Shown here piece after piece: positions 2,794-23,380 of a DNA stretch of 32,000 nucleotides. Where the stretch lies: positions 510,001 through 542,000 of the forward strand of contig AP024486.1 of assembly GCA_021654395.1 (NCBI GenBank), given 5' to 3'. This stretch comes from Candidatus Saccharimonadota bacterium. Lineage in GTDB: Archaea > Micrarchaeota > Micrarchaeia > Micrarchaeales > Micrarchaeaceae. The notes under the pieces are model-generated. The model was not told where the DNA came from. It made no database searches and worked only from the letters and a program-made list of their open reading frames with translations. Both the position numbers and the translations under genes were made by a program. Positions within the stretch are counted from its first letter, which is position 1. Every line of letters begins with the position of its first letter.

Positions 2794-5361
2794 ATGAAGC
2801 CAGAGGTAATAGATTATATTAGATTCTCTGTAATGCCAGATTATCTAATAAAGAAGATCTCAGTAGCTAAGATAAGTATACCTGAGACTTATGATGACGA
2901 AGGATATCCTATAGATGCAGGTTTAGCAGATCAGCGCTTAGGAGTTGTTGATCCAGGATTAAGATGCAAGACCTGCGGAGGAAATCTAAAAACATGCCAA
3001 GGCCACTTTGGGCATATAGAGCTGGTCAGACCAGTAATACATCCATTCTATGCTAAAGTAATATATCTACTTCTTCAAGTGACATGCTATAAGTGCCATA
3101 GATTGCTACTAGATGCAGATCAGCTAAAGGATGTGAAAGAGGATCTAAAAGGCTTTCTAGAGGAGGATATAACTAATGAGGAGGAGCTAAAAGACTATAT
3201 GGATTCTGAGAAGAGATTAAATGAGAAGAGAATAAGCTCGTTAGTAAGCAAGAGCATAAAGCGTATGTCAAAATGCCCATACTGCGGAGCAGATATCGCA
3301 AAGATAAAGTTCGAGAGACCTACAACATTCTATATAGATAATGAGAGATTAAGACCAGACGTTATAAAGGAGTGGCTATCTAATATAAGTGATGAGGATC
3401 TTGCAGTATTAGGCATAGATGGAAAGCTACTAAGACCAGAGTGGTTCATTATAACAAATCTATTAGTACCTCCTGTAAGCGTTAGGCCATCTATTATACT
3501 AGAGAATGGAGAGAGGAGCGAGGATGATCTAACACACCAGCTAGCAGGTATAATAAGAGTAAATAGAAAGCTTCAGCAGGATATAGAGTCTGGAGCTCCT
3601 CAGATAATAATAGATGATCAGTGGGAGCTATTGCAGTATCATGTTAGCGTATACTTCGATAATGAGCTTCCAGGAGTACCTGTATCAAGGCATAGGAGCG
3701 GAAGAGCGTTAAAGAATCTAGCGCAGAGACTTAAAGGAAAGGAAGGAAGATTGAGATATAACTTAAGCGGAAAGAGAGTCAACTACTCAGCGAGAACAGT
3801 TATAGTTCCAGACACATCATTAAATATAAGCGAGCTAGGAGTACCAAAGAGAATAGCACAGGAGCTTACAGTTCCAGTGAATGTAACTGAGTGGAATATA
3901 GAGGCATTAAAGGAGCTAATAAGAAGAAGAGAGTTCCCTACTGCTGTATATGTGATCTCAAATGATGGTATAAAAAGAAAAGTAACAGATGCAAATAGAG
4001 AGGATATAGCAAATGGTCTTACTGTCGGATCTGTTGTAGAGAGACAGCTGATGGATGGTGATATAGTACTATTCAATAGACAGCCGACTCTACACAGGAT
4101 ATCAATAATGGCTCATAGAGTCAGAGTACTTCCAGGAAGAGTCTTTAGACTTAATCTACCGGTTACAACGCCTTACAACGCAGACTTTGATGGAGATGAG
4201 ATGAATATGCATGTTCCACAGTCTATTCCAGCGAGAGCAGAGGCGTTAGTGCTAATGCAGCCAAAGGATTGCATACTATCTCCTAGAGATGGAAAGCCAA
4301 TAATGAAGCTTCAAGAGGATATAGTTATAGGCTTGTATCTGCTTACAAATGATGATAGATACTTCGATAAGAGAGACGCATCTTATCTGCTATCACTAGT
4401 AGGCATCTTTGAGCTACCAGAGCCAGAGAAGAATGGATTATACTCTGGAAAGGCTATATTCTCTATGCTTCTACCGAAAGACTTTAACTATAAGGAAGAG
4501 ACAAAGAAGGGAGTAATAGAGATAAAGAATGGTAAGCTTATCAAGGGAGTTATATCATCAGAGAATGTAAGGAGTGGTAAGTCGCTATTCTTAGCAAAGC
4601 TATATGACAAGTATGGCTCAGACTTTATGGATTCGTTCTTACAGAAGGCAACGCTTCTTGCATTAGCAGTTACATATAGAGCAGGATTAACAATAGGTAT
4701 GAAAGATTACGACCTAAGCGAGGAGCTAATAAAAGAGAAAGATAAGATAATAAAAGAGACTTTAGATGAGGCCGAGAAGATAAGGCAGGAGTATAAGGAA
4801 GGAAGATTGATACCAGAGCCAGGATATAAAGAGAAGGAGTACTATACAATAAAGCTACTGCAGATACTTAGTAAGTCTACAAAGAGAGCAGAGGAGCTGC
4901 TTATAAATAAGCTAAATGAGAGAGAGAACTCGCCATTCTTAATGGCAAGGCTAGATGCTAGAGGAAAGCTTAGCAATCTAGTTGAGATGAGTCTGTTCTT
5001 AGGGCAGCAGATGGTTAGAGGTAAGAGAACACATAGAGGATATGGAGATAGACTAATACCATATCTAAGTAAGAAGGATAAGACACCGCGTGCACATGGC
5101 TTTATCGTAGATTCGTTTATGTATGGATTAGATCCTATAGAGATGATTATGCATGCGATGGGTTCAAGAGCATCGATGCAGGCAAAGTCATTAGTAACAG
5201 CAGTAAGCGGATATCTACAGAGAAGATTGATTAACTCTATGCAAGACTTCTATATAGAGAAGGATCTATCTGTAAGAGACTCCTCTGGTAGATTGATTCA
5301 GACAGTATATGGAGGGGATGGTATTGATGGGATGTATGAGCTTGTTAGCAAGTTAGAGTGA
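2794..5361 (+). CDS. rpoA1: DNA-directed RNA polymerase subunit A' (Rpo1N)
   Basis: 855-aa ORF with the Zn-binding N-terminus CKTCGGNLKTCQGHFGHIEL and the catalytic NADFDGDEMNMH motif. It starts 5 nt after the rpoB1 stop. Confidence 0.95.
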   Translation: MKPEVIDYIRFSVMPDYLIKKISVAKISIPETYDDEGYPIDAGLADQRLGVVDPGLRCKTCGGNLKTCQGHFGHIELVRPVIHPFYAKVIYLLLQVTCYKCHRLLLDADQLKDVKEDLKGFLEEDITNEEELKDYMDSEKRLNEKRISSLVSKSIKRMSKCPYCGADIAKIKFERPTTFYIDNERLRPDVIKEWLSNISDEDLAVLGIDGKLLRPEWFIITNLLVPPVSVRPSIILENGERSEDDLTHQLAGIIRVNRKLQQDIESGAPQIIIDDQWELLQYHVSVYFDNELPGVPVSRHRSGRALKNLAQRLKGKEGRLRYNLSGKRVNYSARTVIVPDTSLNISELGVPKRIAQELTVPVNVTEWNIEALKELIRRREFPTAVYVISNDGIKRKVTDANREDIANGLTVGSVVERQLMDGDIVLFNRQPTLHRISIMAHRVRVLPGRVFRLNLPVTTPYNADFDGDEMNMHVPQSIPARAEALVLMQPKDCILSPRDGKPIMKLQEDIVIGLYLLTNDDRYFDKRDASYLLSLVGIFELPEPEKNGLYSGKAIFSMLLPKDFNYKEETKKGVIEIKNGKLIKGVISSENVRSGKSLFLAKLYDKYGSDFMDSFLQKATLLALAVTYRAGLTIGMKDYDLSEELIKEKDKIIKETLDEAEKIRQEYKEGRLIPEPGYKEKEYYTIKLLQILSKSTKRAEELLINKLNERENSPFLMARLDARGKLSNLVEMSLFLGQQMVRGKRTHRGYGDRLIPYLSKKDKTPRAHGFIVDSFMYGLDPIEMIMHAMGSRASMQAKSLVTAVSGYLQRRLINSMQDFYIEKDLSVRDSSGRLIQTVYGGDGIDGMYELVSKLE

Positions 5362-6562: not shown

Positions 6563-7051
6563 TTAATCTTTCTTCTTTTTAGCTCTATTCATTCTCATTG
6601 TAAGCTCTTTTGGAAGCTTTAGCTCTGGGTATATCTCTGTTAAAAGCATCTGATCAGGGAATATATGAAACTCTGTTATATCTGCGATCTTTGACGCTAT
6701 ATAAGCTAGAGCTATCTCAAATAGCTTCTCATCCTTTACAGCCTCTTTTATCTTGTTCTTTATCTCTTGATTATCTAGCTGCTTTATAGATTCTGCGTAC
6801 TTCTCTATCTTACTTAGCTTCTTACCTTTAGAAGCAGACGCAACAATATCATTAGCTATCTTATCTAGCTTATCTCTATCTATCTCAAATAGCTTATATA
6901 TCCTCTCTTTAATGCTAAAGTAGATACCAGCTAGATGAAAGGCTATCTCGTTATCTTTAGTATTATCACTAATACTGAGTCTCTTTATAGAGACCCAGTC
7001 TTTATGCAATGCTATAAAATCTATATAATTATTCTGCTCTTGTTGGTTCAT
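6563..7051 (-). CDS. Hypothetical helical protein (162 aa), co-transcribed with the upstream wHTH gene
   Basis: Intact ORF whose ATG overlaps the stop of the 74-aa ORF by 4 nt (ATGA). It has a K-rich C-terminus. No family was recognised. Confidence 0.5.
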   Translation of the reverse strand: MNQQEQNNYIDFIALHKDWVSIKRLSISDNTKDNEIAFHLAGIYFSIKERIYKLFEIDRDKLDKIANDIVASASKGKKLSKIEKYAESIKQLDNQEIKNKIKEAVKDEKLFEIALAYIASKIADITEFHIFPDQMLLTEIYPELKLPKELTMRMNRAKKKKD

Positions 7052-7272
7052 TGAGGCTTCTGCACCAGATAGTAGCCTGCAGCCTTCTCTCTTGCGACTC
7101 TCTTTACTAAGCCCTTATTTGCTAGTGATACTAATGCATTATTTACCATTCCCTTTGGTCTGTTACATTTCTTTGCTATATCATCTGCTGTCTTTATAGA
7201 ATCTTCTTTTGTTGCTCCTAGCTCCTGCATCGCCTTTACAACCAACTGCTCTATAGGTGTCAATTCTACCAT
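7048..7272 (-). CDS. Small winged-helix DNA-binding protein (74 aa)
   Basis: The pattern TADDIAKKCNRPKGMVNNALVSLANKGLVKR...YYL fits helix-turn-helix plus wing. The size is typical of archaeal single-domain wHTH proteins. Confidence 0.5.
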   Translation of the reverse strand: MVELTPIEQLVVKAMQELGATKEDSIKTADDIAKKCNRPKGMVNNALVSLANKGLVKRVAREKAAGYYLVQKPQ

Positions 7273-7338
7273 ATATTATCACTCTTTATATATTTTATTC
7301 TAAGCATCATTTATTATTAAAAAGCTAACTATTTATAT

Positions 7339-7491
7339 TTATTTCTTTGCAGCTACCTCCTTTCTCTTAGGTCTTAATGCTTTGCTGCCACACTTTCTGC
7401 AGAACTTTGCATTAGGGCTATTTCTTGCCTTACAGTTCTTACAGATCAGAACATTAAATAGGTATGCATCTGCTATCTGCAACTTGCCCAT
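7339..7491 (-). CDS. rpl40e: 50S ribosomal protein L40e (50 aa); too short for the ORF track
   Basis: Minus-strand translation gives MGKLQIADAYLFNVLICKNCKARNSPNAKFCRKCGSKALRPKRKEVAAKK. This matches the L40e pattern: a C-x2-C ... C-x2-C zinc ribbon with ARN and KCRKCG-like context and a basic tail. Confidence 0.85.
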   Translation of the reverse strand: MGKLQIADAYLFNVLICKNCKARNSPNAKFCRKCGSKALRPKRKEVAAKK

Positions 7492-7669
7492 AAAATTCAC
7501 TGAATATATACATATTTAAGAGATAAATAATTTAAAAATCTTACGATATAAAAAGTTTTAAGATAATGCAACAAAAATTGATTCTTACTTTAGGTTTTTA
7601 AAATAAAAAAAGTAAATTTGTTCTATCTGCTTATTGTTGAAATCAGAAAGAAAGAAGCTAACTGTATTG

Positions 7670-8494
7670 TTATGATGCATTCCTTAATTGCTTTAAGATA
7701 TCTGTCGCGTCACCTACACTCTTTCTTATTTTATCTAAATTTTCTCTGAACTTTATTACCTTATCTTTATTTGGCCTTATTCTGAAGAACTCTTTTCTTA
7801 TATCTTTTCTCAACTTATCTATCTCATCTATTAAGCTTTTATACTCTTTATCGCCACCGTATTCGGATAGTTCTTTCTTCATTTTCTTTAATTCTACTGA
7901 CATCTTTATTAAGTCGTATCCTTTCATACTTTTCTTATAGTTATCTAATCTATTTTTAATAGCTTCCTTTAAGCTTTTAGCTTTATTAAGTGATCTAGTA
8001 ATGTTTCTTCTTAGCATTGGTATTGTTGATTTAGCTGTTCTTATAAGTGATGTTAAATGTAATCTCTTAAAGTTTCTTAGTCTTGGCATTCCTTCGAAGA
8101 ACTTTTCTTTAATCTCGGCTCTAAGATTATCTATATTCTTTATTTCTTCAGGATATCTAGCTTTAGCTCCCATCTCTTTTAACTTTGCAGACATAATTAT
8201 AAGCTGATATCCTCTTAATGGTCTAAACTCTTTAAATACCTTTTCTATTATTTCTGGTTCACCTGCGCCTTTTAATAAGATATCTATTACATTGTTTCTC
8301 TCTTTTTCGTTATCGATATCTTTTGCTTTATTTAACACAGCATACTGAAGGGGTGTCATATGCTTTTCTACAGCACGTAAAGCTATGTCTTTTAGCAATT
8401 TTCTATCATTTTTTCTCTTCATATCTAGATTAGATACTACGTATTTCAAATACATCTCGATATCATTTATTGTTGTTTCTACCATACCTATCAC
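7670..8494 (-). CDS. Hypothetical K/E-rich helical protein (274 aa) with an internal duplication and one ankyrin-like segment
   Basis: Two about 60-aa modules align by eye: LRGYQLIIMSAKLKEM...IDNLRAEIKEKFF and MKGYDLIKMSVELKKM...IDKLRKDIRKEFF. The N-terminal TPLQYAVLNKA...VIDILLKGAGEPE resembles a single ankyrin repeat. Confidence 0.45.
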   Translation of the reverse strand: MIGMVETTINDIEMYLKYVVSNLDMKRKNDRKLLKDIALRAVEKHMTPLQYAVLNKAKDIDNEKERNNVIDILLKGAGEPEIIEKVFKEFRPLRGYQLIIMSAKLKEMGAKARYPEEIKNIDNLRAEIKEKFFEGMPRLRNFKRLHLTSLIRTAKSTIPMLRRNITRSLNKAKSLKEAIKNRLDNYKKSMKGYDLIKMSVELKKMKKELSEYGGDKEYKSLIDEIDKLRKDIRKEFFRIRPNKDKVIKFRENLDKIRKSVGDATDILKQLRNAS

Positions 8495-8613
8495 CTATCC
8501 TAAATACTAGTGAGCGAACTGATATATAAATCTTTCTATCCCTAATAAAAAGATTTAAATACGTTGCTTATTCAACGCTTTTTTAAGTAGAATAAAGAAT
8601 GAGTTTATCTGCA

Positions 8614-8970
8614 TTAGTGTAGAGATTTATTTAATTTACAAATACAGTTCAATATAAAGATCTTGTCCTGCTTTGCATGCTTAATTTTATCTTTAAGACC
8701 ATTCAAAGTATTTAAGAGCCCCATATTATCTAATAGCCCTTTTAAAGGACTATTACTTATTAGCTCTTTTATTAGATTTAATGATAAGTAACTAGAATCA
8801 ATTATTCCGTAAGAAGCGATATCTAGCGTTATTAAATTATATATTATACTACTTATGCATTTTGAGGCAATAATTGCATAAGCCTCTTCTTTATTTGCAG
8901 ATCTTGAAAACTTAGTTAATGCATTATTTATTTGATCTGAATATCTTTTATTTAGAATTACACGATCTTT
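8614..8970 (-). pseudogene. Start-less 118-codon open frame, probably the displaced C-terminal part of the 8958..9533 gene
   Basis: The frame KDRVILNKRYSDQINNALTKF...KLNKSLH* is open from 8970 to the stop at 8614-8616. It has no ATG/GTG/TTG until two thirds of the way through. Adding one A to the A5 run in ggtAAAAAgatcg joins it in frame to the 191-aa ORF (...YKKGKKDRVILNK...). Confidence 0.35.
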
Positions 8971-9533
8971 TTACCTTTTTTGTATCTATTAATAACTTCT
9001 ATTAATTCGGTAAATATCTGTGCTATATTTATATTGTTTTCTGTATCTACTATTAATCCATTAAATACATTATCATCACTATCTTTGTTAATATTACGTA
9101 TAATCGCTAGATATGTCTTATCTTCAGAATAATCTATTCTTACAATCCTTTCTATATTACCATATGTTGATCCATATTTTAATACCTCTTTTATATATTC
9201 GTTTTCTTTTAAATATTCTGATTTATGCATTACAGATTGATCATCTATACGAATATCGAATTGGCTAATGCGCAGATCTGTCGCTAATATTATTGGCTTT
9301 CTACTAATATCTATAATTCTATTTAACTTTGATGCTGCCTCTAGTTGATTGTTATCTTCATAAGGCAATACAGGTATATCAATATTTTCTGACTTAGATA
9401 CATTTATCTTACTTTTTATAAAGTTTTCAATTATAATTCTAATCTTTTCTATTTCATTATCTATATAATTCTTTGAATTGATTGGTAATATATACTTTAT
9501 TACTTTAGAAGTATTTACATTCATTAAATTCAC
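8958..9533 (-). CDS. Hypothetical protein (191 aa as written), probably the N-terminal part of a frameshifted longer gene
   Basis: Intact ATG ORF with no recognised family. It stops just after an A5 run. Another frame then stays open for 118 more codons. Confidence 0.45.
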   Translation of the reverse strand: MNLMNVNTSKVIKYILPINSKNYIDNEIEKIRIIIENFIKSKINVSKSENIDIPVLPYEDNNQLEAASKLNRIIDISRKPIILATDLRISQFDIRIDDQSVMHKSEYLKENEYIKEVLKYGSTYGNIERIVRIDYSEDKTYLAIIRNINKDSDDNVFNGLIVDTENNINIAQIFTELIEVINRYKKGKKIV

Positions 9534-9814
9534 TTTCGCATTTACTTATTCTATATACAAGTACTTTTCAAAACTTTAAGCATAATAAATGATTTAGCAT
9601 TAATATTTAAGGCTTTCGATAATTATACCGCTAATTTTTCTTTTTAATTATATATTTCGATCGATTATCTAAAAGCTCTTAACGAATCATTACTTTATAT
9701 ATGTTGAACGTTTGAATTAGAAATAAGGCTTATTCACTAAAGTATAAAATTACTCTCAAAATAACTTCAGTAAAGACGTAACTTTAAATAATAGCTTTAT
9801 TAAACTTTATCTTC

Positions 9815-9824
9815 TTTATATAAA
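9815..9824 (+). promoter_or_regulatory. Possible archaeal TATA box upstream of the mini-ORF and rSAM cassette
   Basis: tttatataaa lies in an otherwise non-coding AT-rich gap, about 46-55 nt upstream of GTG 9870. Confidence 0.2.
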
Positions 9825-9869
9825 AATGCGGACGAGATAAAAAAAGAGAATTATAGAGAGTTTGTAATA

Positions 9870-9950
9870 GTGCCATCTCCTTTTAATAAGCCAGTTGATG
9901 ATGCAGAGGAGCCAGTAATGTTATGTAAAAGATGTAAACACCCAAGATAA
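9870..9950 (+). CDS. Candidate 26-aa precursor-like peptide (GTG start): (M)PSPFNKPVDDAEEPVMLCKRCKHPR
   Basis: The frame is open from 9804 to TAA 9948-9950. The only plausible starts are GTG 9870 or ATG 9918 (MLCKRCKHPR). The N-terminal half is acidic and the C-terminus is basic with C-x2-C. It lies directly upstream of the RRE-like and rSAM/SPASM genes. Expression is unproven. Confidence 0.2.
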   Translation: MPSPFNKPVDDAEEPVMLCKRCKHPR

Positions 9951-10003
9951 AATTATTTTATTTATTTTTATTAGGTGGTTATTATAATACAATTTCTTAA
10001 TGA

Positions 10004-10207
10004 GATAATATTTCTGAGAGAAGCGAATTAGGCTATAAGATTAATCCACAATTATATTTCTTTAAGGATAAAAATGGATATATCTGCTATGCTCCTTATG
10101 ATCATTTCGCAGCAAGACTTACAGAGGAAGAGTACAATTATCTAATTACACGCCCAATCTTAAAAGAGATGCACCTAAGAAGCTTTTTATGGCAAATTTT
10201 ATGTTAG
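10004..10207 (+). pseudogene. PqqD/RRE-like peptide-recognition fragment without a usable start codon
   Basis: The open frame DNISERSELGYKINPQLYFFKDKNGYICYAPYDHFAARLTEEEYNYLITRPILKEM... resembles the hairpin-plus-helix opening of PqqD-type RiPP recognition elements. There is no ATG/GTG/TTG at its 5' end. The ATG at 10000 is out of frame (ATG AGA TAA). Confidence 0.3.
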
Positions 10208-10233
10208 AGAATCTCACACGTCTGATATCACAT

Positions 10234-11306
10234 ATGAAAACCACGTTATGAGCCTACTACTACTCTTACTATATTTTTAGGAGACGCATGCAATCTAAGA
10301 TGTATATACTGTAATGTAGTCCCAAATAGAAAGAGAAGCTTTAATGAAAATGCAACTATAGAAGCTGCAAAGATAATGCTTGAAAGATTTCCAATAAAAG
10401 AGATCTCTTTCTTTGGAAATGGAGAACCTTTACTATATTTTGATACTATCAAGAAGATAGTAGAGTTAGCGAAGAGCAAGGGCCAGTATTCATTTACAAT
10501 ATGCACAAATAGTGTGTTTGGTAATAGAAGATCTGAGATAGTAAGATTTTTGGTAGAAAACAACTTCTATATGCAGATATCAATAGATGGCTATAAAGCT
10601 ATACAGGATAAGCAAAGACCAATGGCTAATAAAAGGAGCCCTTCTGAAGAGGTCGAGAAGACTATAGAAGAGATAATAGATGTAGATCTTGATAAATTTG
10701 CTATGGCCAGATTTACACTTACAAAAGAGGCGTTTGATCATTAAAAGAGATATTATTATATCTTAAAAGCCTAGGCTTCAAAAAGGTCAGATGCGCAGAG
10801 CTTATACCAGAAGGTGAGGCATTAACTAATCATATAGAAAGATTGGATCTTTACAATTTATATAAAGAGATAGTAGATGCGCTTATATTCGCAGAAGAGA
10901 TAGGAATAGATTTTTCAGGCGATTTTGATCCAAGAACGCCATCAGAATCTGGATTATACCCATGTCCTTATATGGCAGGCAGAGCAGCATCTTTAAATGA
11001 GATCTCAATCTTTTGTCATGTTTAGAAGATGTAGAATATTGGAAGATAGGCAGGGTTAATATTAAAGAAAAAGCTATAGAGATAGATGAAGATGCATTCA
11101 ACAGATTTGCATCTAGAAATAGCAGAACTCTTAAATGTGATAGCTGCCATGTTAGATGCGGCAGAGGATGTACGCATTCTTCATTTATTAATTCAAAGAG
11201 GCTAGATGTTCCTGGAGATTATCCAGGCAAATGCGATATATTAAGGAATATACTTTATAATTACTTAAATAGAAAGTTAAGTGGTTTAAATGAATATCAA
11301 AGTTAA
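10234..11306 (+). pseudogene. Radical SAM / SPASM-domain maturase, disrupted by three frameshifts (about 357 codons when repaired)
   Basis: Pieces: ATG 10234 then (frame change) KPRYEPTTTLTIFLGDACNLRCIYCN (CxxxCxxC), FFGNGEPLL; next frame from 10738 SLKEILLYLKSLGFKKVRCAELIPEG...YPCPYMAG; next frame from 11001 ...SCLEDVEYWKIGRV...CDSCHVRCGRGC (SPASM-type Cys cluster). The frame switches are confined to 10238-10248, 10738-10741 and 11001-11022. Confidence 0.75.
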
Positions 11307-13140
11307 AGATAGGTTAAAATTATTTGGAGGTAAAGCCAGTAATCTATTAGAGATAGCCGATAGTTTCAATGTACCAAAGTTTTCAGTTTTAGATACTAAT
11401 CTATTTAACGAATTTGTTAAATATAATGATATATATAAAAGAATTGAATCGATTTTATATAAAAGCGATATAAGAGAAAATAGCGAAAAGATAAAACAGA
11501 TATTTCTATCCTCTGAGTTTTCTAAAGAACAGAGATCTATAATACAAGCTGCTCTAAAGAATCTAAATGAGCCGTTAGCTATAAGAAGCAGCGCTAATTT
11601 AGAGGATCTGCCAAACGAAAGCTTTGCCGGAGCTTTTAAAAGCGTTTTATACGTTAAAAAGGATAATGTAGAGCAAGCTATTAAGGAGGTATATGCCTCT
11701 TTATTCAATGAGAGAGTTCTAAATTACATAAAAGCAAATAATATAGCTATAGAAGATATAAAGATGGCTGTAATAATGCAAGAGATGATAACTAATGGAA
11801 AGTATGGAGTTTTATTCTTCTCAGATAACGGAATTCTTATTCAGGTTGGATTAGATCCTGATGCAGTTATATCTGCAAATACAAAAGATATAGATACTTA
11901 CTTCATTAAAGATAGCACTAAATTTAAGTATCCTTTTAGACATGGAGTAAGCATGCTTTTCGAATATGAGATAGAAGAGCTAGAAGATATAGCTAAAAGA
12001 TTAAAGAGTTATAACTTTCCATTAGATGCAGAGTTTGCAATTAAGGATGGAAATATATACATATTACAGCAGAGAAGGCTTACTAAAGAGATACCAAACT
12101 ATAGCACTCATGCTGAGGTTTATGCATTCCCAGCTAGCGAAGGTATAGCAGTTGGAAAGGCCACTATACTGCGTCATAACGCTAGTATTGAAGAATTACC
12201 AAAAGGTAAGGATAGAATCTTAATAGCAGAAGAGATAGAGCTAGATTATGCACCTAAAATAAAAGACTTCGCTGGTGTATGTATAGAGATTCCTGGAATA
12301 ACGTCACATGCTGTTATATATGCAAGAGAGAATAATATTCCATGCATAGTTGGTGCGACAGACATTACAAAGATTGTAAAAGATGATGAACTTATTGAGA
12401 TAAACGGTTCAACAGGCGAGATAAGATTAATCGATAGACCAGGAATATCAATAGGCAGTAAGATAAAAAGCATAGAGATAAATTATAAAGATCTAAAGCC
12501 TTTTAGATACAAAAAAGATCTCTTACTGATTAAAGAGCTTGAAAAAGAGCAGATAATATTTCATGTGATTAACGATAAAAAGCTGCTATTAGATATTGTC
12601 AAGACTCTAGAGAAAGAGAGAGATAAACCGGTAAGTGAAGGCTCAGTCGATATATGGTATGCTTATGCAAATATAATAGAGCTAGAATCTTTGGATAAGA
12701 ATCTAGCGTATGCATTAGATAAGGCCTATATTACTGCTAAAGAGGGAAGTATAGAATCGATAAGAGAAGCAATAAATAAGCAAGTTGAAATATCAGAAAG
12801 GCTTTATAATGAAGCCTTTGAAAGCTATAAAAGATATGCTGCTAGTAAGAATAAAAGTGATCTAGTAAACGGATTTTTAAACGCAATACTGGCAGAAGCA
12901 CATAATAAGATAGCCACAAGGTTGATGCTGTTTGAGTTTATCGACGATAGAGCAAATAAAGATAAGGAGATATTTAACTTTGTGGCCAAGATGGAGGAAG
13001 ATTCCAATCTTAATGATATAACTAATTCGATACGCAACTTGATTGATAGATTTTTAGAAATCTACAAGAGCGACTTTGGCATAGAATATGTTAAATACTC
13101 TTCTCAATTAGCTCTAATCGAAGCATTACATGCTAAATAG
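11290..13140 (+). CDS. PEP synthase/PPDK-like phosphotransferase: ATP-grasp (PPDK_N) + swivel phosphohistidine domain + unknown C-terminal helical domain
   Basis: 616-aa intact ORF with FGGKASNL and IRSSANLEDLPNESFAGAF (PPDK_N) and GITSHAVIYARENNIPCIVG (PEP-utilizer mobile His domain). No PEP/pyruvate TIM-barrel motifs were seen. The last about 230 aa were not recognised. It overlaps the rSAM 3' end by 17 nt. Confidence 0.8.
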   Translation: MNIKVKDRLKLFGGKASNLLEIADSFNVPKFSVLDTNLFNEFVKYNDIYKRIESILYKSDIRENSEKIKQIFLSSEFSKEQRSIIQAALKNLNEPLAIRSSANLEDLPNESFAGAFKSVLYVKKDNVEQAIKEVYASLFNERVLNYIKANNIAIEDIKMAVIMQEMITNGKYGVLFFSDNGILIQVGLDPDAVISANTKDIDTYFIKDSTKFKYPFRHGVSMLFEYEIEELEDIAKRLKSYNFPLDAEFAIKDGNIYILQQRRLTKEIPNYSTHAEVYAFPASEGIAVGKATILRHNASIEELPKGKDRILIAEEIELDYAPKIKDFAGVCIEIPGITSHAVIYARENNIPCIVGATDITKIVKDDELIEINGSTGEIRLIDRPGISIGSKIKSIEINYKDLKPFRYKKDLLLIKELEKEQIIFHVINDKKLLLDIVKTLEKERDKPVSEGSVDIWYAYANIIELESLDKNLAYALDKAYITAKEGSIESIREAINKQVEISERLYNEAFESYKRYAASKNKSDLVNGFLNAILAEAHNKIATRLMLFEFIDDRANKDKEIFNFVAKMEEDSNLNDITNSIRNLIDRFLEIYKSDFGIEYVKYSSQLALIEALHAK

Positions 13141-13650: not shown

Positions 13651-14949
13651 ATGAATGACATGGAGGTAAGTGACGCTTTAAGGCTTCTCAATAGTTGGTG
13701 GACATCGGGTAAAGTAAAGTCTGAGCTAGTTAAGCCATACAGACGCCCTGTATTTTCAGAAGTTTATGATCTGCTTGAAAATTACAAGGAAGTAATAATA
13801 CTCACTGGACTTAGGCGGGTTGGCAAAACGACAATAATGTACCAGATTATAGATGAATTGCTCAAGAAGGTAAAACCTACAAGCATTATCTATTTTACAT
13901 TTGATTATGGTAATGCAGATATAACAGCAGTACTAGATGCATATCAGCAGCTAACAAACATAGACTGGAAAGAGGAGAAAATTTATTTGTTTTTAGATGA
14001 AGTTCAAAAACTGAAAAGCTGGAGTCAGCAGGTAAAGATACTCTACGATGCCTTTCCAAATATAAGATTTGTATTATCTGGCTCTGCATCACTGCAACTA
14101 GAGAAAGACGCAATAGATAACCTGGCAGGTAGGTATTATCTTGTAGAAGTGCCAGTATTGTCAATATCAGAGTACTATTCGCTCAAATATGATAAGATAA
14201 TTGAAAATGTTAAGCTATATGAAGAAGAGATAGGTAGAGAGCTTGAAACATATATAAGAAGACCCTTCCCAGAGCTGGCAAAAGTTACGGACGAAGCAAG
14301 GGCATATGAGTACATACGTGAAAGTGTTATTGCAAAGATAGTAAGCCAGGATATGCTACAAGAGTTTGAAAAAGTAGATATACCTCTTCTGAATTCGCTT
14401 GTCAGCATATTTTTCGCTGAACCTGGAATGATTCTTAATATAGACTCGCTTTCAAGAACACTAAAAAAGAGAAAGCAGGAGATAGAGCGCCATATTCACA
14501 TGCTCGAATTTGCAAAGATTATAAGAATTGTAAAGAACTATAGGCCCTCTGTTCTATCGGAATCGAGAAAACTTAGAAAGGTCTATCCGTATGACATATC
14601 TTTAGCATTGGCTGAAAATCCCTCTCTAGAAAAGGGAAAGATTACCGAAGCACTGATTGTATCGAGGCTTGATATCAAGCTATACTGGCGTGAAGGAAAC
14701 AAAGAGATAGATTGCTTGATTGGAGATAGAAAAGATCTAATTCCAATAGAAGTAAAGGCATCGGATGTGCTAAAGGAGGAATACATAAAAAATCTAAACT
14801 ATTTCGTGCAAAAGTTTAATACAAAATTAGGTGCACTGCTTTACTATGGAAAGAGAGTAGACTTGGGTAAAATAAAAGTGATTAACATAAAGGATGTACT
14901 TATATATGGATTTTATGATGCGATAGGAGTGCATCAAAATAATAAATAG
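13651..14949 (+). CDS. COG1373-type AAA+ ATPase with a C-terminal DUF4143 / PD-(D/E)xK-like domain
   Basis: Walker A GLRRVGKTT and Walker B YLFLDEVQ are present. The C-terminal EIDCLIGDRKDLIPIEVKAS fits the D...E-x-K nuclease-fold motif. Confidence 0.8.
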   Translation: MNDMEVSDALRLLNSWWTSGKVKSELVKPYRRPVFSEVYDLLENYKEVIILTGLRRVGKTTIMYQIIDELLKKVKPTSIIYFTFDYGNADITAVLDAYQQLTNIDWKEEKIYLFLDEVQKLKSWSQQVKILYDAFPNIRFVLSGSASLQLEKDAIDNLAGRYYLVEVPVLSISEYYSLKYDKIIENVKLYEEEIGRELETYIRRPFPELAKVTDEARAYEYIRESVIAKIVSQDMLQEFEKVDIPLLNSLVSIFFAEPGMILNIDSLSRTLKKRKQEIERHIHMLEFAKIIRIVKNYRPSVLSESRKLRKVYPYDISLALAENPSLEKGKITEALIVSRLDIKLYWREGNKEIDCLIGDRKDLIPIEVKASDVLKEEYIKNLNYFVQKFNTKLGALLYYGKRVDLGKIKVINIKDVLIYGFYDAIGVHQNNK

Positions 14950-15062
14950 TGTTTTGGTATTCTTATATATTGCAAATATATTCGCATTTTGTTCAAGAAC
15001 AAAAGGATAAGCTCTATGAGAGAAAGATATATACATCATACCAAAGAATTTGAACTATAATG

Positions 15063-15135
15063 AGCCCTAAGTGGGATTTGAACCCACGACCTCCTGCTTA
15101 CGAGGCAGGCGCTCTACCAGCTGAGCTATTAGGGC
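15063..15135 (-). tRNA. tRNA-Thr (anticodon CGU)
   Basis: The 73-nt minus-strand sequence folds as a perfect cloverleaf: acceptor GCCCTAA/TTAGGGC, D stem GCTC/GAGC, anticodon stem CCTGC/GCAGG, loop CTCGTAA, T stem GTGGG/CCCAC with TTCAAAT loop. The discriminator is U and no CCA is encoded. It is the only GC-rich island in the window. Confidence 0.93.
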
Positions 15136-15266: not shown

Positions 15267-16268
15267 ATGAGCAAATATACAATAGAAGTTTCTAATCTTG
15301 TAAAGAGATACGGCAACTTTGAAGCAGTTAAAGGAATCTCTTTTAATGTAAATAAAGGAGAGATATTTGGATTTCTTGGGCCTAATGGAGCAGGAAAGAC
15401 TACAACTGTGCATATATTAACAACAATAATAGATAAAACCTCAGGAGACGCATATGTATGCGGCTATGATGTATCAAAGCAGAAAGAGAAGGTTAGAGAA
15501 AATATAGGTATTGTATTTCAAGATCCTTCATTAGATGATAGATTAACAGGGTATGAAAATCTAGATTTTCATGCAATGATCTATGGAATTAATAAGGAAT
15601 ATAGACGTAAAAGAATAAAAGAAGCGTTAGAGATGGTTGAGTTAGAAGATAAAGCAGATACATTAGTAATGTACTATTCTGGTGGTATGAAAAGAAGATT
15701 AGAGATCGCAAGAGGCTTGTTAAATCAACCAGAGGTATTATTCTTAGATGAACCAACTGTTGGATTAGATGTTCAAACGAGAAGACATATACTAGATTAT
15801 ATAAAAGCGTTGAGAGATAGATATAAGATGACAATATTTTTAACAACGCATTATATAGAAGAAGCAGACTATCTTTGTGATAGAATAGCTATTATAGACC
15901 ATGGAAAGATAATTGCATTAGATACACCTGAAAATCTAAAGAAGAGCATTGGTGGAGACACATTATCTCTTACATTAAAGCACAAATCAGATATAAAGAT
16001 AATTTTAAATGCATTAAGTAGGTTAGACGTGATAGAAGACGTTAAAGTAGAGAATAATAGCATATATCTAATATTGAAAGATGCATCGTCCAACATAGTA
16101 GATATAATGAATATTGCATATAATAAAAATGTAGCAATAGAAAAAGTAGAGATAAGAAGACCAAGCTTAGAGGATGTATTTATACATTATACTGGAAGAA
16201 GCATTAGAGAAGAGGAAGGAAGCAATTTAGATAGAATTAGAATGAGACTCAGAGCGGGAATGAGATAA
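15267..16268 (+). CDS. ABC transporter ATP-binding protein (ABC-2/DrrA-like exporter type)
   Basis: Walker A GPNGAGKTT, signature YSGGMKRRLEIA and Walker B LFLDEPTVGLD are present. Its stop overlaps the start of the downstream permease gene by one base. Confidence 0.9.
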   Translation: MSKYTIEVSNLVKRYGNFEAVKGISFNVNKGEIFGFLGPNGAGKTTTVHILTTIIDKTSGDAYVCGYDVSKQKEKVRENIGIVFQDPSLDDRLTGYENLDFHAMIYGINKEYRRKRIKEALEMVELEDKADTLVMYYSGGMKRRLEIARGLLNQPEVLFLDEPTVGLDVQTRRHILDYIKALRDRYKMTIFLTTHYIEEADYLCDRIAIIDHGKIIALDTPENLKKSIGGDTLSLTLKHKSDIKIILNALSRLDVIEDVKVENNSIYLILKDASSNIVDIMNIAYNKNVAIEKVEIRRPSLEDVFIHYTGRSIREEEGSNLDRIRMRLRAGMR

Positions 16269-17035
16269 TGAATAGAGAGTTTGCTGCTATATATGTATTG
16301 TGGCTAAGGGCTCTTAAGAGGTTTATAAGATCGCCTTCGCAGATAATAGGATCTGTTGCAATGCCATTATTATTTCTAATATTCTTAGGTTTGGGATTTA
16401 GTAATGTAAAGTTTCCTGGTTTACCATCAAATCTTGATTATATTGATTTCTTAGTACCAGGAATATTAGGCATGTCTATGCTATTCGCCGCAACTACAGC
16501 AGGCATATCATTATTGTGGGATAGACAGTTTGGCTTTTTAAAAGAAGTAATGGTAGCTCCTGTAAGCAGATTAAGCATAATGCTTGGAAGGACTTTGGGC
16601 GGAGTAACAACAGCATTTATACAAAGCATAATGCTTATAATCTTCTCAATATTAATAGGTTTTAAGATAATTAGTGTACTTGGCTTAATTGCTTCTTTTA
16701 TATTTATGCTGCTTATAGGCTTAATATTTGTATCTTTAGGATTAATAATAGCTTCGGTTATGTCTGATATACAAGGCTTTGGTTTGATACTTAATCTGCT
16801 TATATTCCCTCTTTTCTTTCTCTCGGGAGCATTATATCCATTAAATGTATTGCCTAAATATGTAAGATATATCGTGTATCTTAATCCACTGACTTATGGG
16901 ATAGATGGAATAAGAGGTGCTTTGATAAATTTCTCTATATTTGGTGAAACTAACGACTTTATAATATTGTTGATTGTAGCAGCTGCATCTTTGAGTATAG
17001 GAGCTCATGCTTTCTCTAAAGCAAAGATAGTATAA
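16268..17035 (+). CDS. ABC-2 type transporter permease
   Basis: 255-aa ORF with about six hydrophobic spans, coupled to the ATPase gene (TAATG overlap). This is the typical ABC-2 size and layout. Confidence 0.8.
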   Translation: MNREFAAIYVLWLRALKRFIRSPSQIIGSVAMPLLFLIFLGLGFSNVKFPGLPSNLDYIDFLVPGILGMSMLFAATTAGISLLWDRQFGFLKEVMVAPVSRLSIMLGRTLGGVTTAFIQSIMLIIFSILIGFKIISVLGLIASFIFMLLIGLIFVSLGLIIASVMSDIQGFGLILNLLIFPLFFLSGALYPLNVLPKYVRYIVYLNPLTYGIDGIRGALINFSIFGETNDFIILLIVAAASLSIGAHAFSKAKIV

Positions 17036-21092: not shown

Positions 21093-22445
21093 ATGAGATT
21101 CATGTCAGTACTGTTTTATGATAGATTTGCTACGGCATTTTCTTTAGCATTTCATATAATCTTTGCTTCTATTGGTATTGCACTACCAGCAATAATAGCA
21201 ATAGCAGAGTATAACTATATAAAGAGAAAAGATATATACTATAGAGCATTAGCCAATAGGCTCTCTATAGCTTTAGCAATACTGTTTGCGATAGGAACTG
21301 CTTCTGGAACACTTGTAGCTATAGATCTATTGGCGCTCTGGCCTAAATTTATGTCATTAGTTGGAGAGGTAGCTATACTACCTCTGTTTACCGAAGTCTT
21401 TGCCTTCTTTGGAGAGTCTATACTATTAGGAACTTATCTTTATCTTAGAGATAGAATTAAGAGCGACACTATAAGATTCCTACTTATAAGCGGGGTAGCG
21501 TTCTTTGCAGCGTCTTCTGGAGTATTAATAACTATGATAAATGCATTTATGAATACTCCTGTTGGATTCAACATAGATGCATATCTACAAAGTAACACAA
21601 TAGAAGCTGTAAATCCTTTAGCTGCTTTTGATACTCCATCCACACCTATAGAAGAGTTTCATGTTATATCTACTGCTTATCTATCTGGTTCAATAATATT
21701 TCTTGCATACTTTGCCTTTATGCTGAATAAGAACAGAATGGATAAGATTAAGAAGCAGTATTATATTAGGGGTGTTAAGATTGCTTTTGGAGTAGCCTTT
21801 ATATCGCTAATACTTGCTGTTATAAGTGGAGTTCTCTCTATAGAGATGCTTTATCATCTACAGCCAGAGAAGTATGCAGCATTTGAGTTAGACATCTACT
21901 CTCAAGCAGATGCACCAGAGGTTATATTCGGTTATTATAATGCAGCGACAAACTCGATAAAAGACGCTATAATAATTCCTGGCTTGCAGAGTATATTGGC
22001 TAATGGTTCAGTATCCGCTGTAGTTCCTGGATTAGATCAATTTCCTAAAGATACATGGCCTCCTCTGTTTGTTCATGATCTATTCGATGCGATGGTTATT
22101 ATAGGATTTACTTTAGCATCTATATATATACTTGCCTTATTACTAATTGTATTAAAGAAGATTTCTATAGATAGTAAGGCAATGATGTATATCTCAATAA
22201 TATCAGCAGCTCTAGTTGTATCTCTATTAGAGATGGGCTGGGTTGCAGCAGAGGTTGGCAGGCAGCCTTGGATAATATATAACGTTATGACAGTAAATCA
22301 GGCAGCAAATTATTCCAGTAGTGTAATACCTATAGCTATAGCAATAGTTGTAATATATGCTATACTGCTGCCTTTTACTATATACATCTTAAAAAGAGTA
22401 TTTAGCTCGAGGCCCATAGAGAAGTATATAGGTGAATATAGATGA
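21093..22445 (+). CDS. cydA: Cytochrome bd-type quinol oxidase subunit I
   Basis: N-terminal FH heme-ligand context, FTEVFAFFGES, HVISTAY and GWVAAEVGRQPW motifs are present. 450 aa, short Q-loop type. Confidence 0.88.
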   Translation: MRFMSVLFYDRFATAFSLAFHIIFASIGIALPAIIAIAEYNYIKRKDIYYRALANRLSIALAILFAIGTASGTLVAIDLLALWPKFMSLVGEVAILPLFTEVFAFFGESILLGTYLYLRDRIKSDTIRFLLISGVAFFAASSGVLITMINAFMNTPVGFNIDAYLQSNTIEAVNPLAAFDTPSTPIEEFHVISTAYLSGSIIFLAYFAFMLNKNRMDKIKKQYYIRGVKIAFGVAFISLILAVISGVLSIEMLYHLQPEKYAAFELDIYSQADAPEVIFGYYNAATNSIKDAIIIPGLQSILANGSVSAVVPGLDQFPKDTWPPLFVHDLFDAMVIIGFTLASIYILALLLIVLKKISIDSKAMMYISIISAALVVSLLEMGWVAAEVGRQPWIIYNVMTVNQAANYSSSVIPIAIAIVVIYAILLPFTIYILKRVFSSRPIEKYIGEYR

Positions 22446-23380
22446 ATACCCTAATACTAATTAACTATCTGGTTTTTGCATTATTTCTTACTGCATTTAT
22501 GATAGAGATTGGTGTTGCTCTACTGCTATTAATAGATTATAAGAGAAAAGATAAGCTTCTAAGATATCTCATGCCGATATGGGCTGCAGATGGCACATTT
22601 GGGATATTCTATGTTGTTGATCTAGAAGCAACTTACCCATCTGCAGTTCCATTAATAGGTAAGCTATATGCAACTTTTCTTCTTATAGCTGGACTAATAT
22701 TTATATTTAGAAATGCATTTATAGAATATGCAGAGTATATAAGTAGGAGATCATCTAAGAGGGCTTATCATATAGTCTATATATCTGCTACAGCTATAGT
22801 TACTTTTATCGCGTTATCATTATTAGCATCTACAATAAGTGGCATTGGAGTAGATCTTAATAGTCAGAGTATAGATTCTTATGCCTTGATCTTTAATCCT
22901 TTTAGTATACTGCTATTTATCTCTGGTGCACTCGCTTCATTCTTTATAGCATCTACGATATTTAACTTTGGTAAGGTTAAATTAAAAGCAGCATCCATAG
23001 CTCTTTCTATATTGCTTATACTGATAGGCTTTTATCTATATGCTTATAACATATATAAATCACTTATAAGCAATCCATTATTACTAATTCTGCCTATATC
23101 TATTATTATACTCTCTATAGCTATGCAAGCTAGTAAGATAAGAGCTTACTCAAAGTATATAGCTATATTAAGCCTATTTATATCGATCCTTTCTATAGAG
23201 ATAGCAGAGTATCCTTATATATTTAATGGCAGTATAGACTTAAACTCTATAGTAATAGCAGGATCTGAAGCCTACTATCTAACAATATTCTTTGCTGGTG
23301 GTATAATTCTGCTAGCAGCTTTATTAACCATAATGCTGTACTTTGGTTTAATATCAAGGCAAGTTAAGTTAAAAGCTTAA
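22442..23380 (+). CDS. cydB: Cytochrome bd-type quinol oxidase subunit II
   Basis: 312-aa polytopic membrane ORF overlapping the cydA stop by 4 nt. Assigned by position and topology; the sequence is divergent. Confidence 0.7.
   Translation: MNTLILINYLVFALFLTAFMIEIGVALLLLIDYKRKDKLLRYLMPIWAADGTFGIFYVVDLEATYPSAVPLIGKLYATFLLIAGLIFIFRNAFIEYAEYISRRSSKRAYHIVYISATAIVTFIALSLLASTISGIGVDLNSQSIDSYALIFNPFSILLFISGALASFFIASTIFNFGKVKLKAASIALSILLILIGFYLYAYNIYKSLISNPLLLILPISIIILSIAMQASKIRAYSKYIAILSLFISILSIEIAEYPYIFNGSIDLNSIVIAGSEAYYLTIFFAGGIILLAALLTIMLYFGLISRQVKLKA

Follow-up and report, generated by a model that had tools for sequence, protein, structure and literature searches.

A peptide, radical SAM and kinase cassette in a micrarchaeal genome

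Three co-oriented genes occupy positions 9826-13140 (+) of a 32-kb stretch of DNA from a Candidatus Micrarchaeota metagenome-assembled genome (MAG). We refer to the whole of this stretch as the window, and coordinates are positions within it unless a locus number, such as L004, precedes them. The genes encode a short precursor peptide, a radical S-adenosylmethionine (SAM) protein with a SPASM-like C-terminal region, and a kinase related to the phosphoenolpyruvate (PEP) synthase PpsA (Table 1). We consider it likely that they are a decayed copy of a conserved cassette for a peptide, its radical SAM maturase and a phosphotransferase.

An earlier reading of the same sequence, the original prediction, had described a decayed cassette resembling those for ribosomally made peptides with post-translational modifications (RiPPs). 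It listed four elements: a 26-aa mini-open reading frame (ORF) at 9870-9950, a fragment resembling PqqD or a RiPP recognition element (RRE), a radical SAM/SPASM gene and a phosphotransferase. All of them lie where they had been placed or close by, but they belong to three genes, since the PqqD/RRE fragment is the N-terminal domain of the radical SAM protein and is fused to it in intact orthologues. The 17-nt overlap between the phosphotransferase start and the 3ʹ end of the radical SAM gene is confirmed by the ORF coordinates. The kinase had rightly been called intact and the radical SAM gene broken; a separate RRE part does not exist, and damage to the peptide gene itself had been overlooked.

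Table 1. Features of the window cassette and of the related Fic-containing (type B) cassettes. Coordinates for type B are those of the respective loci.
Feature	Position	Strand	Basis
Precursor-peptide gene, damaged	9826-9950	+	ORF list; homology to L004, L007, L009, L019 and other peptides
RRE-like N-terminal domain of radical SAM pseudogene	10004-10248	+	Alignment to residues ~20-95 of intact orthologues
Radical SAM core and SPASM-like C-terminal region, pseudogene	10247-11306	+	PF04055, tblastn, conserved Cys
PpsA-like phosphotransferase, intact, 616 aa	11290-13140	+	Pfam
Type B cassette (peptide, Fic/HEAT, radical SAM)	L014 5711-9392; L031 198-3714; L035 136-3652		

A short precursor peptide with three invariant residues

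The 26-aa ORF has a GTG start and the sequence MPSPFNKPVDDAEEPVMLCKRCKHPR, with the pattern ...PSPFN-x13-CKRCKHPR. A motif SP(F/W)N...CKRCK(H/Q)P(R/K) is common to this peptide, to those of L004, L007, L009 and L019, and to other homologues. Upstream of the GTG, in-frame homology persists (KKENYREFVIV versus KKEEFIII), and the open frame extends beyond that codon as ...KKENYREFVIVPSPFN in the window and ...KKEEFIIIPSPFN in L004. Relative to the conserved core, the ATG at 9826 is displaced from the frame by 1 nt (ATGCGGACGAGATAA...). Given this upstream homology and the frame offset of the ATG, the original gene appears to have had ~41-42 codons and to have lost its start through a 1-nt indel; the ATG at 9826 was probably that start.

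We compared 17 peptide variants from loci of two kinds, those with the kinase (type A) and those in which a Fic protein fills its slot (type B). Three positions alone are invariant: within an SxxN motif the Ser and the Asn, and a Cys that follows this Asn by 16-20 residues. In most type A peptides the C-terminus reads CKRCK(H/Q/D/R)P(R/K) and in two others C(V/K)..CKGG(Q/E)GG, while the tails of type B peptides are Cys-rich. The precursor of L016 ends in KKGCKGGEGG and has a single Cys in its C-terminal part. Intact precursors are 40-60 aa long and are encoded directly upstream in all type A loci for which enough sequence is available. Hence, the conserved short ORF that the original prediction expected in homologous loci is found, immediately upstream of the radical SAM gene and homologous to the window mini-ORF. 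At L005, the core of the homologous ORF (1031-1153; …EIIASPFNKRMEDWENQRKFVCKRCKDPK) is not preceded by an ATG, GTG or TTG codon.

When 5.8 billion proteins were searched with a type A peptide profile, there were 15 matches with E values down to 1e-14, all of them stand-alone ORFs of 40-78 aa. We considered whether the motif instead belongs to some bigger protein of the cell, for example a zinc-ribbon ribosomal protein, and rejected this given that every one of the 15 matches is a small stand-alone ORF. The peptides also do not fit the (C/S)xPxR motif of sulfatases, which would have indicated a reaction like that of the anaerobic sulfatase-maturating enzyme (anSME).

A radical SAM pseudogene related to peptide maturases

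In a three-frame translation, the radical SAM gene of the window is homologous from end to end to intact orthologues, with 52-63% identity per segment. Matches to the L004 and L005 proteins in tblastn are spread over three frames, with switches at ~10168, ~10247, ~10740 and ~11001. An in-frame start is absent, and the ATG at 10001 meets a stop two codons on. The gene is a pseudogene. It nonetheless retains the CX3CX2C motif (CNLRCIYC, 10289-10312), and PF04055 (Radical_SAM) matches the repaired translation with an E value of 9e-16, as compared with 4e-13 to 9e-17 for intact orthologues.

The fragment at 10004-10207 is a coding remnant of the N-terminal domain, which corresponds to residues ~20-95 of intact orthologues, is fused in every one of them and aligns as INPQLYFF...YAPY..FAA..EY.YL...DAPK.L. 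An AlphaFold2 model of the intact orthologue P0122 has a predicted local distance difference test score (pLDDT) of 84. Its N-terminus comprises strands at residues 29-33, 36-41 and 46-50, followed by helices at 52-60, 70-73 and 85-90, and these three strands and three helices are predicted to form a domain with RRE topology. The P0122 model aligns over its full length with CteB, a maturase that contains an RRE (template modelling (TM) score 0.67-0.71, 445-459 columns). After CteB, the fold matches are to anSME, likewise over the full length of the model, and to SkfB, TigE, ChlB and SuiB, with PqqE also among them. By sequence, too, CteB is the best solved structure (5e-31) and anSME the second.

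In its C-terminal region the family has seven Cys that do not vary among 20 members (C334, C353, C392, C395, C399, C403 and C424 in P0122), and all seven are retained in the window copy. Judged by the CteB structure (PDB 5WGG/5WHY), having seven rather than eight Cys would leave one auxiliary-cluster site open for the substrate Cys, which we treat as a lead only.

The best NCBIfam matches of the radical SAM protein are all peptide maturases: PapB (ranthipeptide; 84-113 bits against a cutoff of 340), nif11-like, HxsB, SCIFF (62-81 bits against a cutoff of 425) and QhpD. PapB ranks first or second among them. The protein thus groups with PapB, nif11-like, HxsB and SCIFF enzymes, with CteB as the best structure and anSME ranking lower, as the original prediction of a peptide maturase implied. 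The family has a sharp boundary, with 20 clusters above 225 bits and the next match at 82 bits. Against PADLOC, it showed generic viperin-core similarity only.

A kinase that is not a PEP synthase

The window kinase is 100% identical to a Candidatus Micrarchaeota MAG protein annotated as "phosphoenolpyruvate synthase". It consists of an ATP-grasp domain (PPDK_N, PF01326, aa 11-267, E = 4e-45), a swivel phosphohistidine domain (PEP-utilizers, PF00391, aa 307-376, E = 2e-17; TSH motif at 12295-12330) and a C-terminal domain (aa ~376-616, nt 12415-13137). H340, the catalytic His of the swivel domain, does not vary among 24 homologues, and neither do the ATP-grasp residues. The PEP/pyruvate TIM-barrel domain (PF02896) is missing from the window kinase and from all its close homologues (P0001-P0021), whereas it is present in true PpsA matches. 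Without this domain, the kinase cannot be a PEP synthase. Its best PDB match by sequence is rifampin phosphotransferase (RPH; 7e-73), ahead of true PEP synthases. It falls far below all NCBIfam cutoffs (175 bits against 740 for TIGR01418, PpsA; 111 bits against 999 for NF041857, RPH), and its matches lie in the PpsA/PigC/RPH group. A search of PADLOC with the kinase gave zero matches.

Searches found ~20 full-length relatives of the kinase, with 34-49% identity and the same three-part architecture. Beyond these there is a drop to ordinary PEP synthases that match the first 60% only. The last ~240 residues matched no Pfam family. The model of this C-terminal domain (pLDDT 89.6) has a small sheet and a helical bundle; a fold search of the PDB gave helical-bundle noise only (best E = 0.09, TM score <0.35), so no function can be transferred to it. 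The domain occurs in seven representative clusters of 1.84 billion, always at the C-terminus of proteins of ~630 aa. We also asked whether it is homologous to the C-terminal region of the Fic proteins described below, as a shared peptide-binding module; this was rejected (hhalign probability 0.2%).

Conservation of the cassette

We assembled 38 loci from the contexts of kinase relatives, a metagenome scan with the radical SAM alignment and a motif scan of GTDB genomes, and subjected them to a uniform tblastn screen. The motif scan used a back-translated CPVKCGGGC, and its one unrelated match, in Desulfovibrio (L029), was ignored. A scan of genome contigs with the radical SAM alignment gave no confirmed relative. 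Besides the window, nine distinct lineages carry the peptide, an intact radical SAM gene (442-487 aa) and the kinase back to back: L004/18, L005/6, L007/8/21, L009/10, L013, L016/17, L019/20, L022 and L036. Hence, the adjacency of radical SAM gene and kinase that the original prediction drew attention to is not unique to this genome. The stop and start codons of the two genes often overlap, as in the window, L004, L007 and L009. The hosts are mainly Candidatus Micrarchaeota, which are DPANN archaea.

An all-against-all comparison of the ORFs of all loci revealed no other family common to at least three distinct loci. By this measure GNAT acetyltransferases, the AAA_14 ATPase and the ABC transporter described below were rejected as conserved accessories. 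The cassette is also not assigned to a known defence system, PADLOC having given no match for the kinase and generic models for the radical SAM and Fic proteins.

Several loci have features of their own. L016 encodes two tandem kinase paralogues (625 and 644 aa) after one radical SAM gene (7744-11617). At L036, a second, shorter radical SAM protein (272 aa, 3488-4306) with a Pfam PqqD match is encoded ~400 bp upstream of the type A precursor. GNAT acetyltransferases, including RimL/MccE-like ones (PF13302), lie a few genes away from the cassettes of L007 (7915-8687), L005 (6603-7622) and L011 (10335-10553); in the all-against-all comparison these did not fall into a single family. The kinase P0004 (L001-L003/L034) is labelled "Nitrososphaerota archaeon", yet it lies on a Candidatus Micrarchaeota contig (FK3.bin41), and at least one of these labels is probably a binning or taxonomy error.

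A sister cassette with a Fic protein

The five most divergent radical SAM clusters, with 31-33% identity to those of type A, never adjoin the kinase. At these loci (L014/15, L030/32, L031, L033, L035 and L037/38) the radical SAM gene is immediately preceded by a gene for a protein of ~610 aa with an N-terminal Fic domain (Pfam E = 4e-16) and HEAT repeats. The Fic motif reads HPFEDGNGR, HPFEDGNKR or HVFGDGNGR, and close to the N-terminus there is an inhibitory-helix motif, SxxxEG. PADLOC returned generic Fic models only. The motif of L030, HPFEDGNKR, is Doc-like, which hints at phosphorylation rather than AMPylation.

The type B precursor is encoded upstream of the Fic gene and shares W-x-x-S-x-x-N with type A. 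A 46-aa ORF upstream of the L014 radical SAM gene had been a candidate precursor; it was rejected in favour of the homologous peptide upstream of the Fic gene. Separate contigs of one MAG, FK3.bin41, bear a remnant of type A and a cassette of type B. Kinase and Fic protein are not homologous. Since homologous radical SAM proteins and peptides are accompanied by the kinase in one type and by the Fic protein in the other, two unrelated ATP-using, hydroxyl-modifying enzymes share one cassette slot.

Decay of the window copy

The peptide and radical SAM genes of the window contain five indels in 1464 nt, and the next 1851 nt, which encode the kinase, contain none. At the same rate ~6.3 would be expected in the kinase (Poisson P ~0.002 for zero). 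The frameshifts might be sequencing or assembly errors in a cassette that is really intact, and the source is a MAG with an 814-kb contig, in which consensus errors are possible. We regard this as very improbable. At least five frame disruptions fall within 1.5 kb, while the flanking 30 kb has long uninterrupted ORFs, such as those for the 855-aa RpoAʹ and the 616-aa kinase. The indels at ~10168 and ~11001 are losses of the GAGGAT to GAGAT type and lie outside long homopolymers. Furthermore, both the peptide and the radical SAM gene lack in-frame starts, and decay has occurred independently in other lineages. Given the clustering of the indels, the intact flanking ORFs and the non-homopolymer sites, we treat the peptide and radical SAM genes as true pseudogenes and the kinase as a gene under selection. 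Judged from its sequence, the window has a single functional component, the kinase, and the pathway is otherwise dead.

In three independent lineages the radical SAM gene has decayed and the kinase is intact: the window, L001-3/L034 and L011. In the latter two, the intact kinase gene is preceded by just the last ~130-140 codons of the radical SAM gene. At L012, the kinase stands alone in a bacterial-looking neighbourhood. The survival of the kinase beyond the radical SAM gene fits what would be expected of an immunity or detoxifying enzyme, and phosphorylation and adenylylation are classic antibiotic-inactivating modifications.

Proposed function and alternative explanations

What could a peptide, a radical SAM maturase and a swivel-histidine kinase do together? 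From the observed gene content, conservation, domain folds, invariant Ser/Asn/Cys triad and decay, we infer each chemical step and target residue of the following scheme. The RRE-like N-terminal domain of the CteB-like radical SAM protein would bind the precursor. Radical chemistry would then cross-link the invariant Cys to give a ring of ~20 residues, the bond most likely being a thioether to the SxxN region. The Asn is the obvious acceptor by analogy with the Cys-Asn and Cys-Asp thioethers of related enzymes. The kinase would load its swivel histidine from ATP and pass the phosphate to a peptide hydroxyl, most likely that of the invariant Ser, since this is the only invariant hydroxyl in the peptide; the C-terminal domain of the kinase may hold the peptide. 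In type B, AMPylation or phosphorylation by the Fic protein would take the place of this step. The phosphate or AMP mark could be a tailoring step or a means of producer self-protection, and the state of the window would fit retention of an "orphan" modifying or immunity enzyme.

On balance, we lean towards a decayed RiPP-like cassette working in this manner as the explanation of the whole, while the chemistry at the level of individual residues is tentative. The original interpretation is supported overall; phosphoryl transfer to a peptide, which it had suggested, is a step that we infer. A bolder version, which we think less likely than not, is a new class of DPANN ribosomal peptide with a ~20-residue Cys/SxxN ring closed by the CteB-like enzyme, its Ser esterified by a phosphohistidine-relay dikinase or a Fic enzyme, in which the phosphate or AMP group acts as a pro-drug or immunity switch. 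Either enzyme type would then be acting on a RiPP for the first time. Such a switch would explain the lone kinases that outlive the pathway.

Several observations weigh against the proposed function. The Pfam models PF04055, PF01326 and PF00391, with which the original prediction was to be checked, do match, but two others do not: SPASM (PF13186) was unmatched at E ≤ 1 for the L005 and L014 radical SAM proteins and at E ≤ 0.1 for the repaired window protein, and PqqD (PF05402) was unmatched at E ≤ 1. It is thus the Cys pattern and the predicted fold that support the assignments to SPASM and RRE. For the radical SAM protein, all scores against NCBIfam peptide-maturase models stay below the respective cutoffs. 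The C-terminal domain of the kinase has no detectable similarity to RREs or to the HEAT region of the Fic proteins, so peptide binding by this domain is a guess, and the kinase could have a different substrate. For a secreted RiPP it would be unusual that no conserved protease, exporter or immunity gene accompanies the cassette, as is the case here. The peptide ORF of L005 lacks a canonical start while both L005 enzymes are intact, reflecting either a non-canonical start or early decay. Lastly, the chemistry of both enzymes, including the atom that each would modify, is argued by analogy.

An alternative function for phosphorylation or AMPylation of the Ser is to create a leaving group, such that elimination yields dehydroalanine and attack by the Cys closes a lanthionine-like ring; the radical SAM enzyme would then have another task, such as epimerization, C-methylation or a second link at the Asn. 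In a variant of this scheme, the radical SAM enzyme acts first and, like anSME, oxidizes the Ser to formylglycine, whose enol or aldehyde oxygen is then activated by the PpsA/PigC-like enzyme so that the Cys can attack. Class II-V lanthipeptides are made by the established route of Ser phosphorylation and elimination, two of the three invariant residues are Ser and Cys, and anSME is the second-best structural relative of the radical SAM protein. By its NCBIfam matches the kinase belongs to the PpsA/PigC/RPH group, whose members phosphorylate enol, aldehyde or hydroxyl oxygens. However, no lyase or cyclase is conserved in the cassette, the radical SAM protein is closest to thioether-forming enzymes that themselves need the Cys thiol, and SxxN differs from the sulfatase motif. 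We therefore judge ring closure by elimination to be unlikely. It is somewhat harder to credit that, as with PQQ or mycofactocin, the product is a cofactor made from a peptide, or else a regulatory peptide, for use inside the cell, and that the kinase activates or charges it. The lack of a conserved exporter, leader protease or immunity gene would fit such a product, as would hosts that are genome-reduced DPANN archaea; a radical SAM-SPASM protein, an RRE and a short peptide also occur together in PqqE/PqqA and MftC/MftA, and PqqE is among the fold matches. Set against this are the patchy distribution and frequent decay of the cassette (three decayed copies, one lone kinase and further remnants) and its position among restriction, transposase, Fic and candidate-defence genes, both of which argue for an accessory trait rather than a cofactor pathway. 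Nor is a dependent oxidoreductase conserved nearby.

The kinase may instead be operonic yet act on an unrelated small molecule, for example in antibiotic detoxification as RPH does, and merely travel with the other genes on a mobile island. The best solved relative of the kinase is indeed RPH, the kinase survives without the radical SAM gene in four lineages, and the neighbourhoods are variable and island-like. We find this improbable nevertheless. The two genes are tightly coupled, with overlapping stop and start codons in four loci including the window, and the kinase and radical SAM families are similar in size, at ~20 clusters each. The C-terminal domain is confined to the kinase family and its seven representative clusters. 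Moreover, hitch-hiking does not readily explain why a Fic protein should replace the kinase in just this cassette.

If this interpretation is correct, swivel-histidine dikinases of the PpsA/RPH type and Fic enzymes would be two enzyme families new to the RiPP toolbox, and would be interchangeable partners of one radical SAM maturase lineage. The cassette would, in addition, be the first system of radical-SAM-modified peptides to have its centre in DPANN archaea. Such archaea have tiny genomes and live on other archaea, so that a dedicated peptide of this kind might matter for competition or for interaction with hosts. The invariant Ser/Asn/Cys triad yields a directly testable prediction for heterologous expression, and the repeated retention of the kinase with loss of the maturase is a natural experiment on a protective role of the kinase. 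For the window itself, the protein annotated as "phosphoenolpyruvate synthase" is not a PEP synthase, and the adjoining radical SAM gene is a pseudogene. What makes this copy valuable is that it points to a small and coherent family, apparently not described before.

Neighbouring genes

The genes around the cassette include a split rpoB, rpoAʹ/Aʹʹ, and genes for a RIO kinase and ThiI, which agree with an archaeal origin of the window. Cytochrome bd oxidase subunits I and II are encoded at 21093-23380 (+) in this DPANN genome. Directly downstream of the cassette lies a gene for a 432-aa AAA_14/DUF4143 ATPase (13651-14949, +), which matches PDC-S01 (E = 2.9e-46), a candidate single-gene defence family of PADLOC. 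In L016/L017, a 432-aa protein with the same domains is encoded directly upstream of the cassette. The ATPase is present in two lineages only and is hence not counted as part of the system.

A tRNA-Thr(CGT) gene at 15062-15135 (-) is followed by an ABC pair, a DrrA-like ATPase and an ABC-2 permease (15267-17035, +), ~2 kb downstream of the kinase. An exporter beside a RiPP-like cassette is suggestive, yet this pair is not conserved at the other loci. On the other side, positions 7000-10000 have a GC content of 24-30%, as compared with 31-39% elsewhere in the window. The minus-strand ORFs at 7670-8494 (274 aa) and 8958-9533 (191 aa) gave no significant Pfam or PADLOC match. Together, the low-GC segment and the tRNA gene at 15.1 kb hint at a variable island located between the tRNA gene and the RNA polymerase operon.

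Relation to known systems

According to the original prediction, no established RiPP class is known to couple a peptide and a radical SAM maturase to such a kinase. In agreement with this, a full-text literature search found no paper that pairs a radical SAM RiPP with a PPDK_N/PEP-utilizer or Fic protein, although most subscription journals are outside its coverage and a prior description is possible. NCBIfam release 20 has no model for the cassette. The cassette is apparently undescribed; it lies outside every curated family and misses all equivalog cutoffs.

By analogy, the cassette resembles a radical SAM-SPASM RiPP pathway of the sactipeptide/ranthipeptide type. It shares with the CteB, SCIFF and PapB maturases a CX3CX2C core, a C-terminal auxiliary-cluster region with seven conserved Cys, a predicted RRE-like N-terminus and a short Cys-containing precursor encoded immediately upstream. 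However, identity to CteB is just ~18-20%, and the auxiliary motif here is Cx2Cx3Cx3C. The precursor is unrelated to SCIFF and PapA, and has a single invariant Cys 16-20 residues away from the other invariant residues. Furthermore, those systems have no obligatory kinase or Fic partner of the kind seen here.

The kinase has the PPDK_N ATP-grasp and PEP-utilizers mobile domain with T-S-H histidine of PpsA, RPH and PigC/RedH, and its chemistry would be expected to follow theirs, from ATP through phosphohistidine to an oxygen nucleophile. In contrast to PpsA and RPH, its third domain is neither the PF02896 TIM barrel nor rifampin-binding; it is a family-restricted alpha/beta and helical domain of ~240 aa, and a peptide is presumed to be the substrate. 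With its His domain in the centre rather than at the C-terminus as in RPH, the kinase follows the domain order of PpsA.

Among RiPPs, lanthipeptides of classes II-V have kinases, LanL and LanKC among them, as do phosphorylated lasso peptides, where the paeninodin enzyme is HPr-kinase-like. The concept would be the same here: ATP-dependent phosphorylation of a Ser in the precursor, as a final mark or a leaving group. The enzymes differ, in that the kinases of these systems are protein-kinase-like or HPr-kinase-like and transfer phosphate directly, whereas the enzyme described here has an ATP-grasp domain and would use a phosphohistidine relay. To our knowledge, none of the LanL/LanKC, class V or paeninodin kinase systems is paired with a radical SAM maturase. 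The type B protein, for its part, has the canonical HxFx(D/E)GN(G/K)RxxR motif and N-terminal SxxxEG motif of Fic/Doc proteins, but differs from them in being fused to a HEAT-repeat region of ~400 aa and in its setting between a precursor peptide and a radical SAM maturase.

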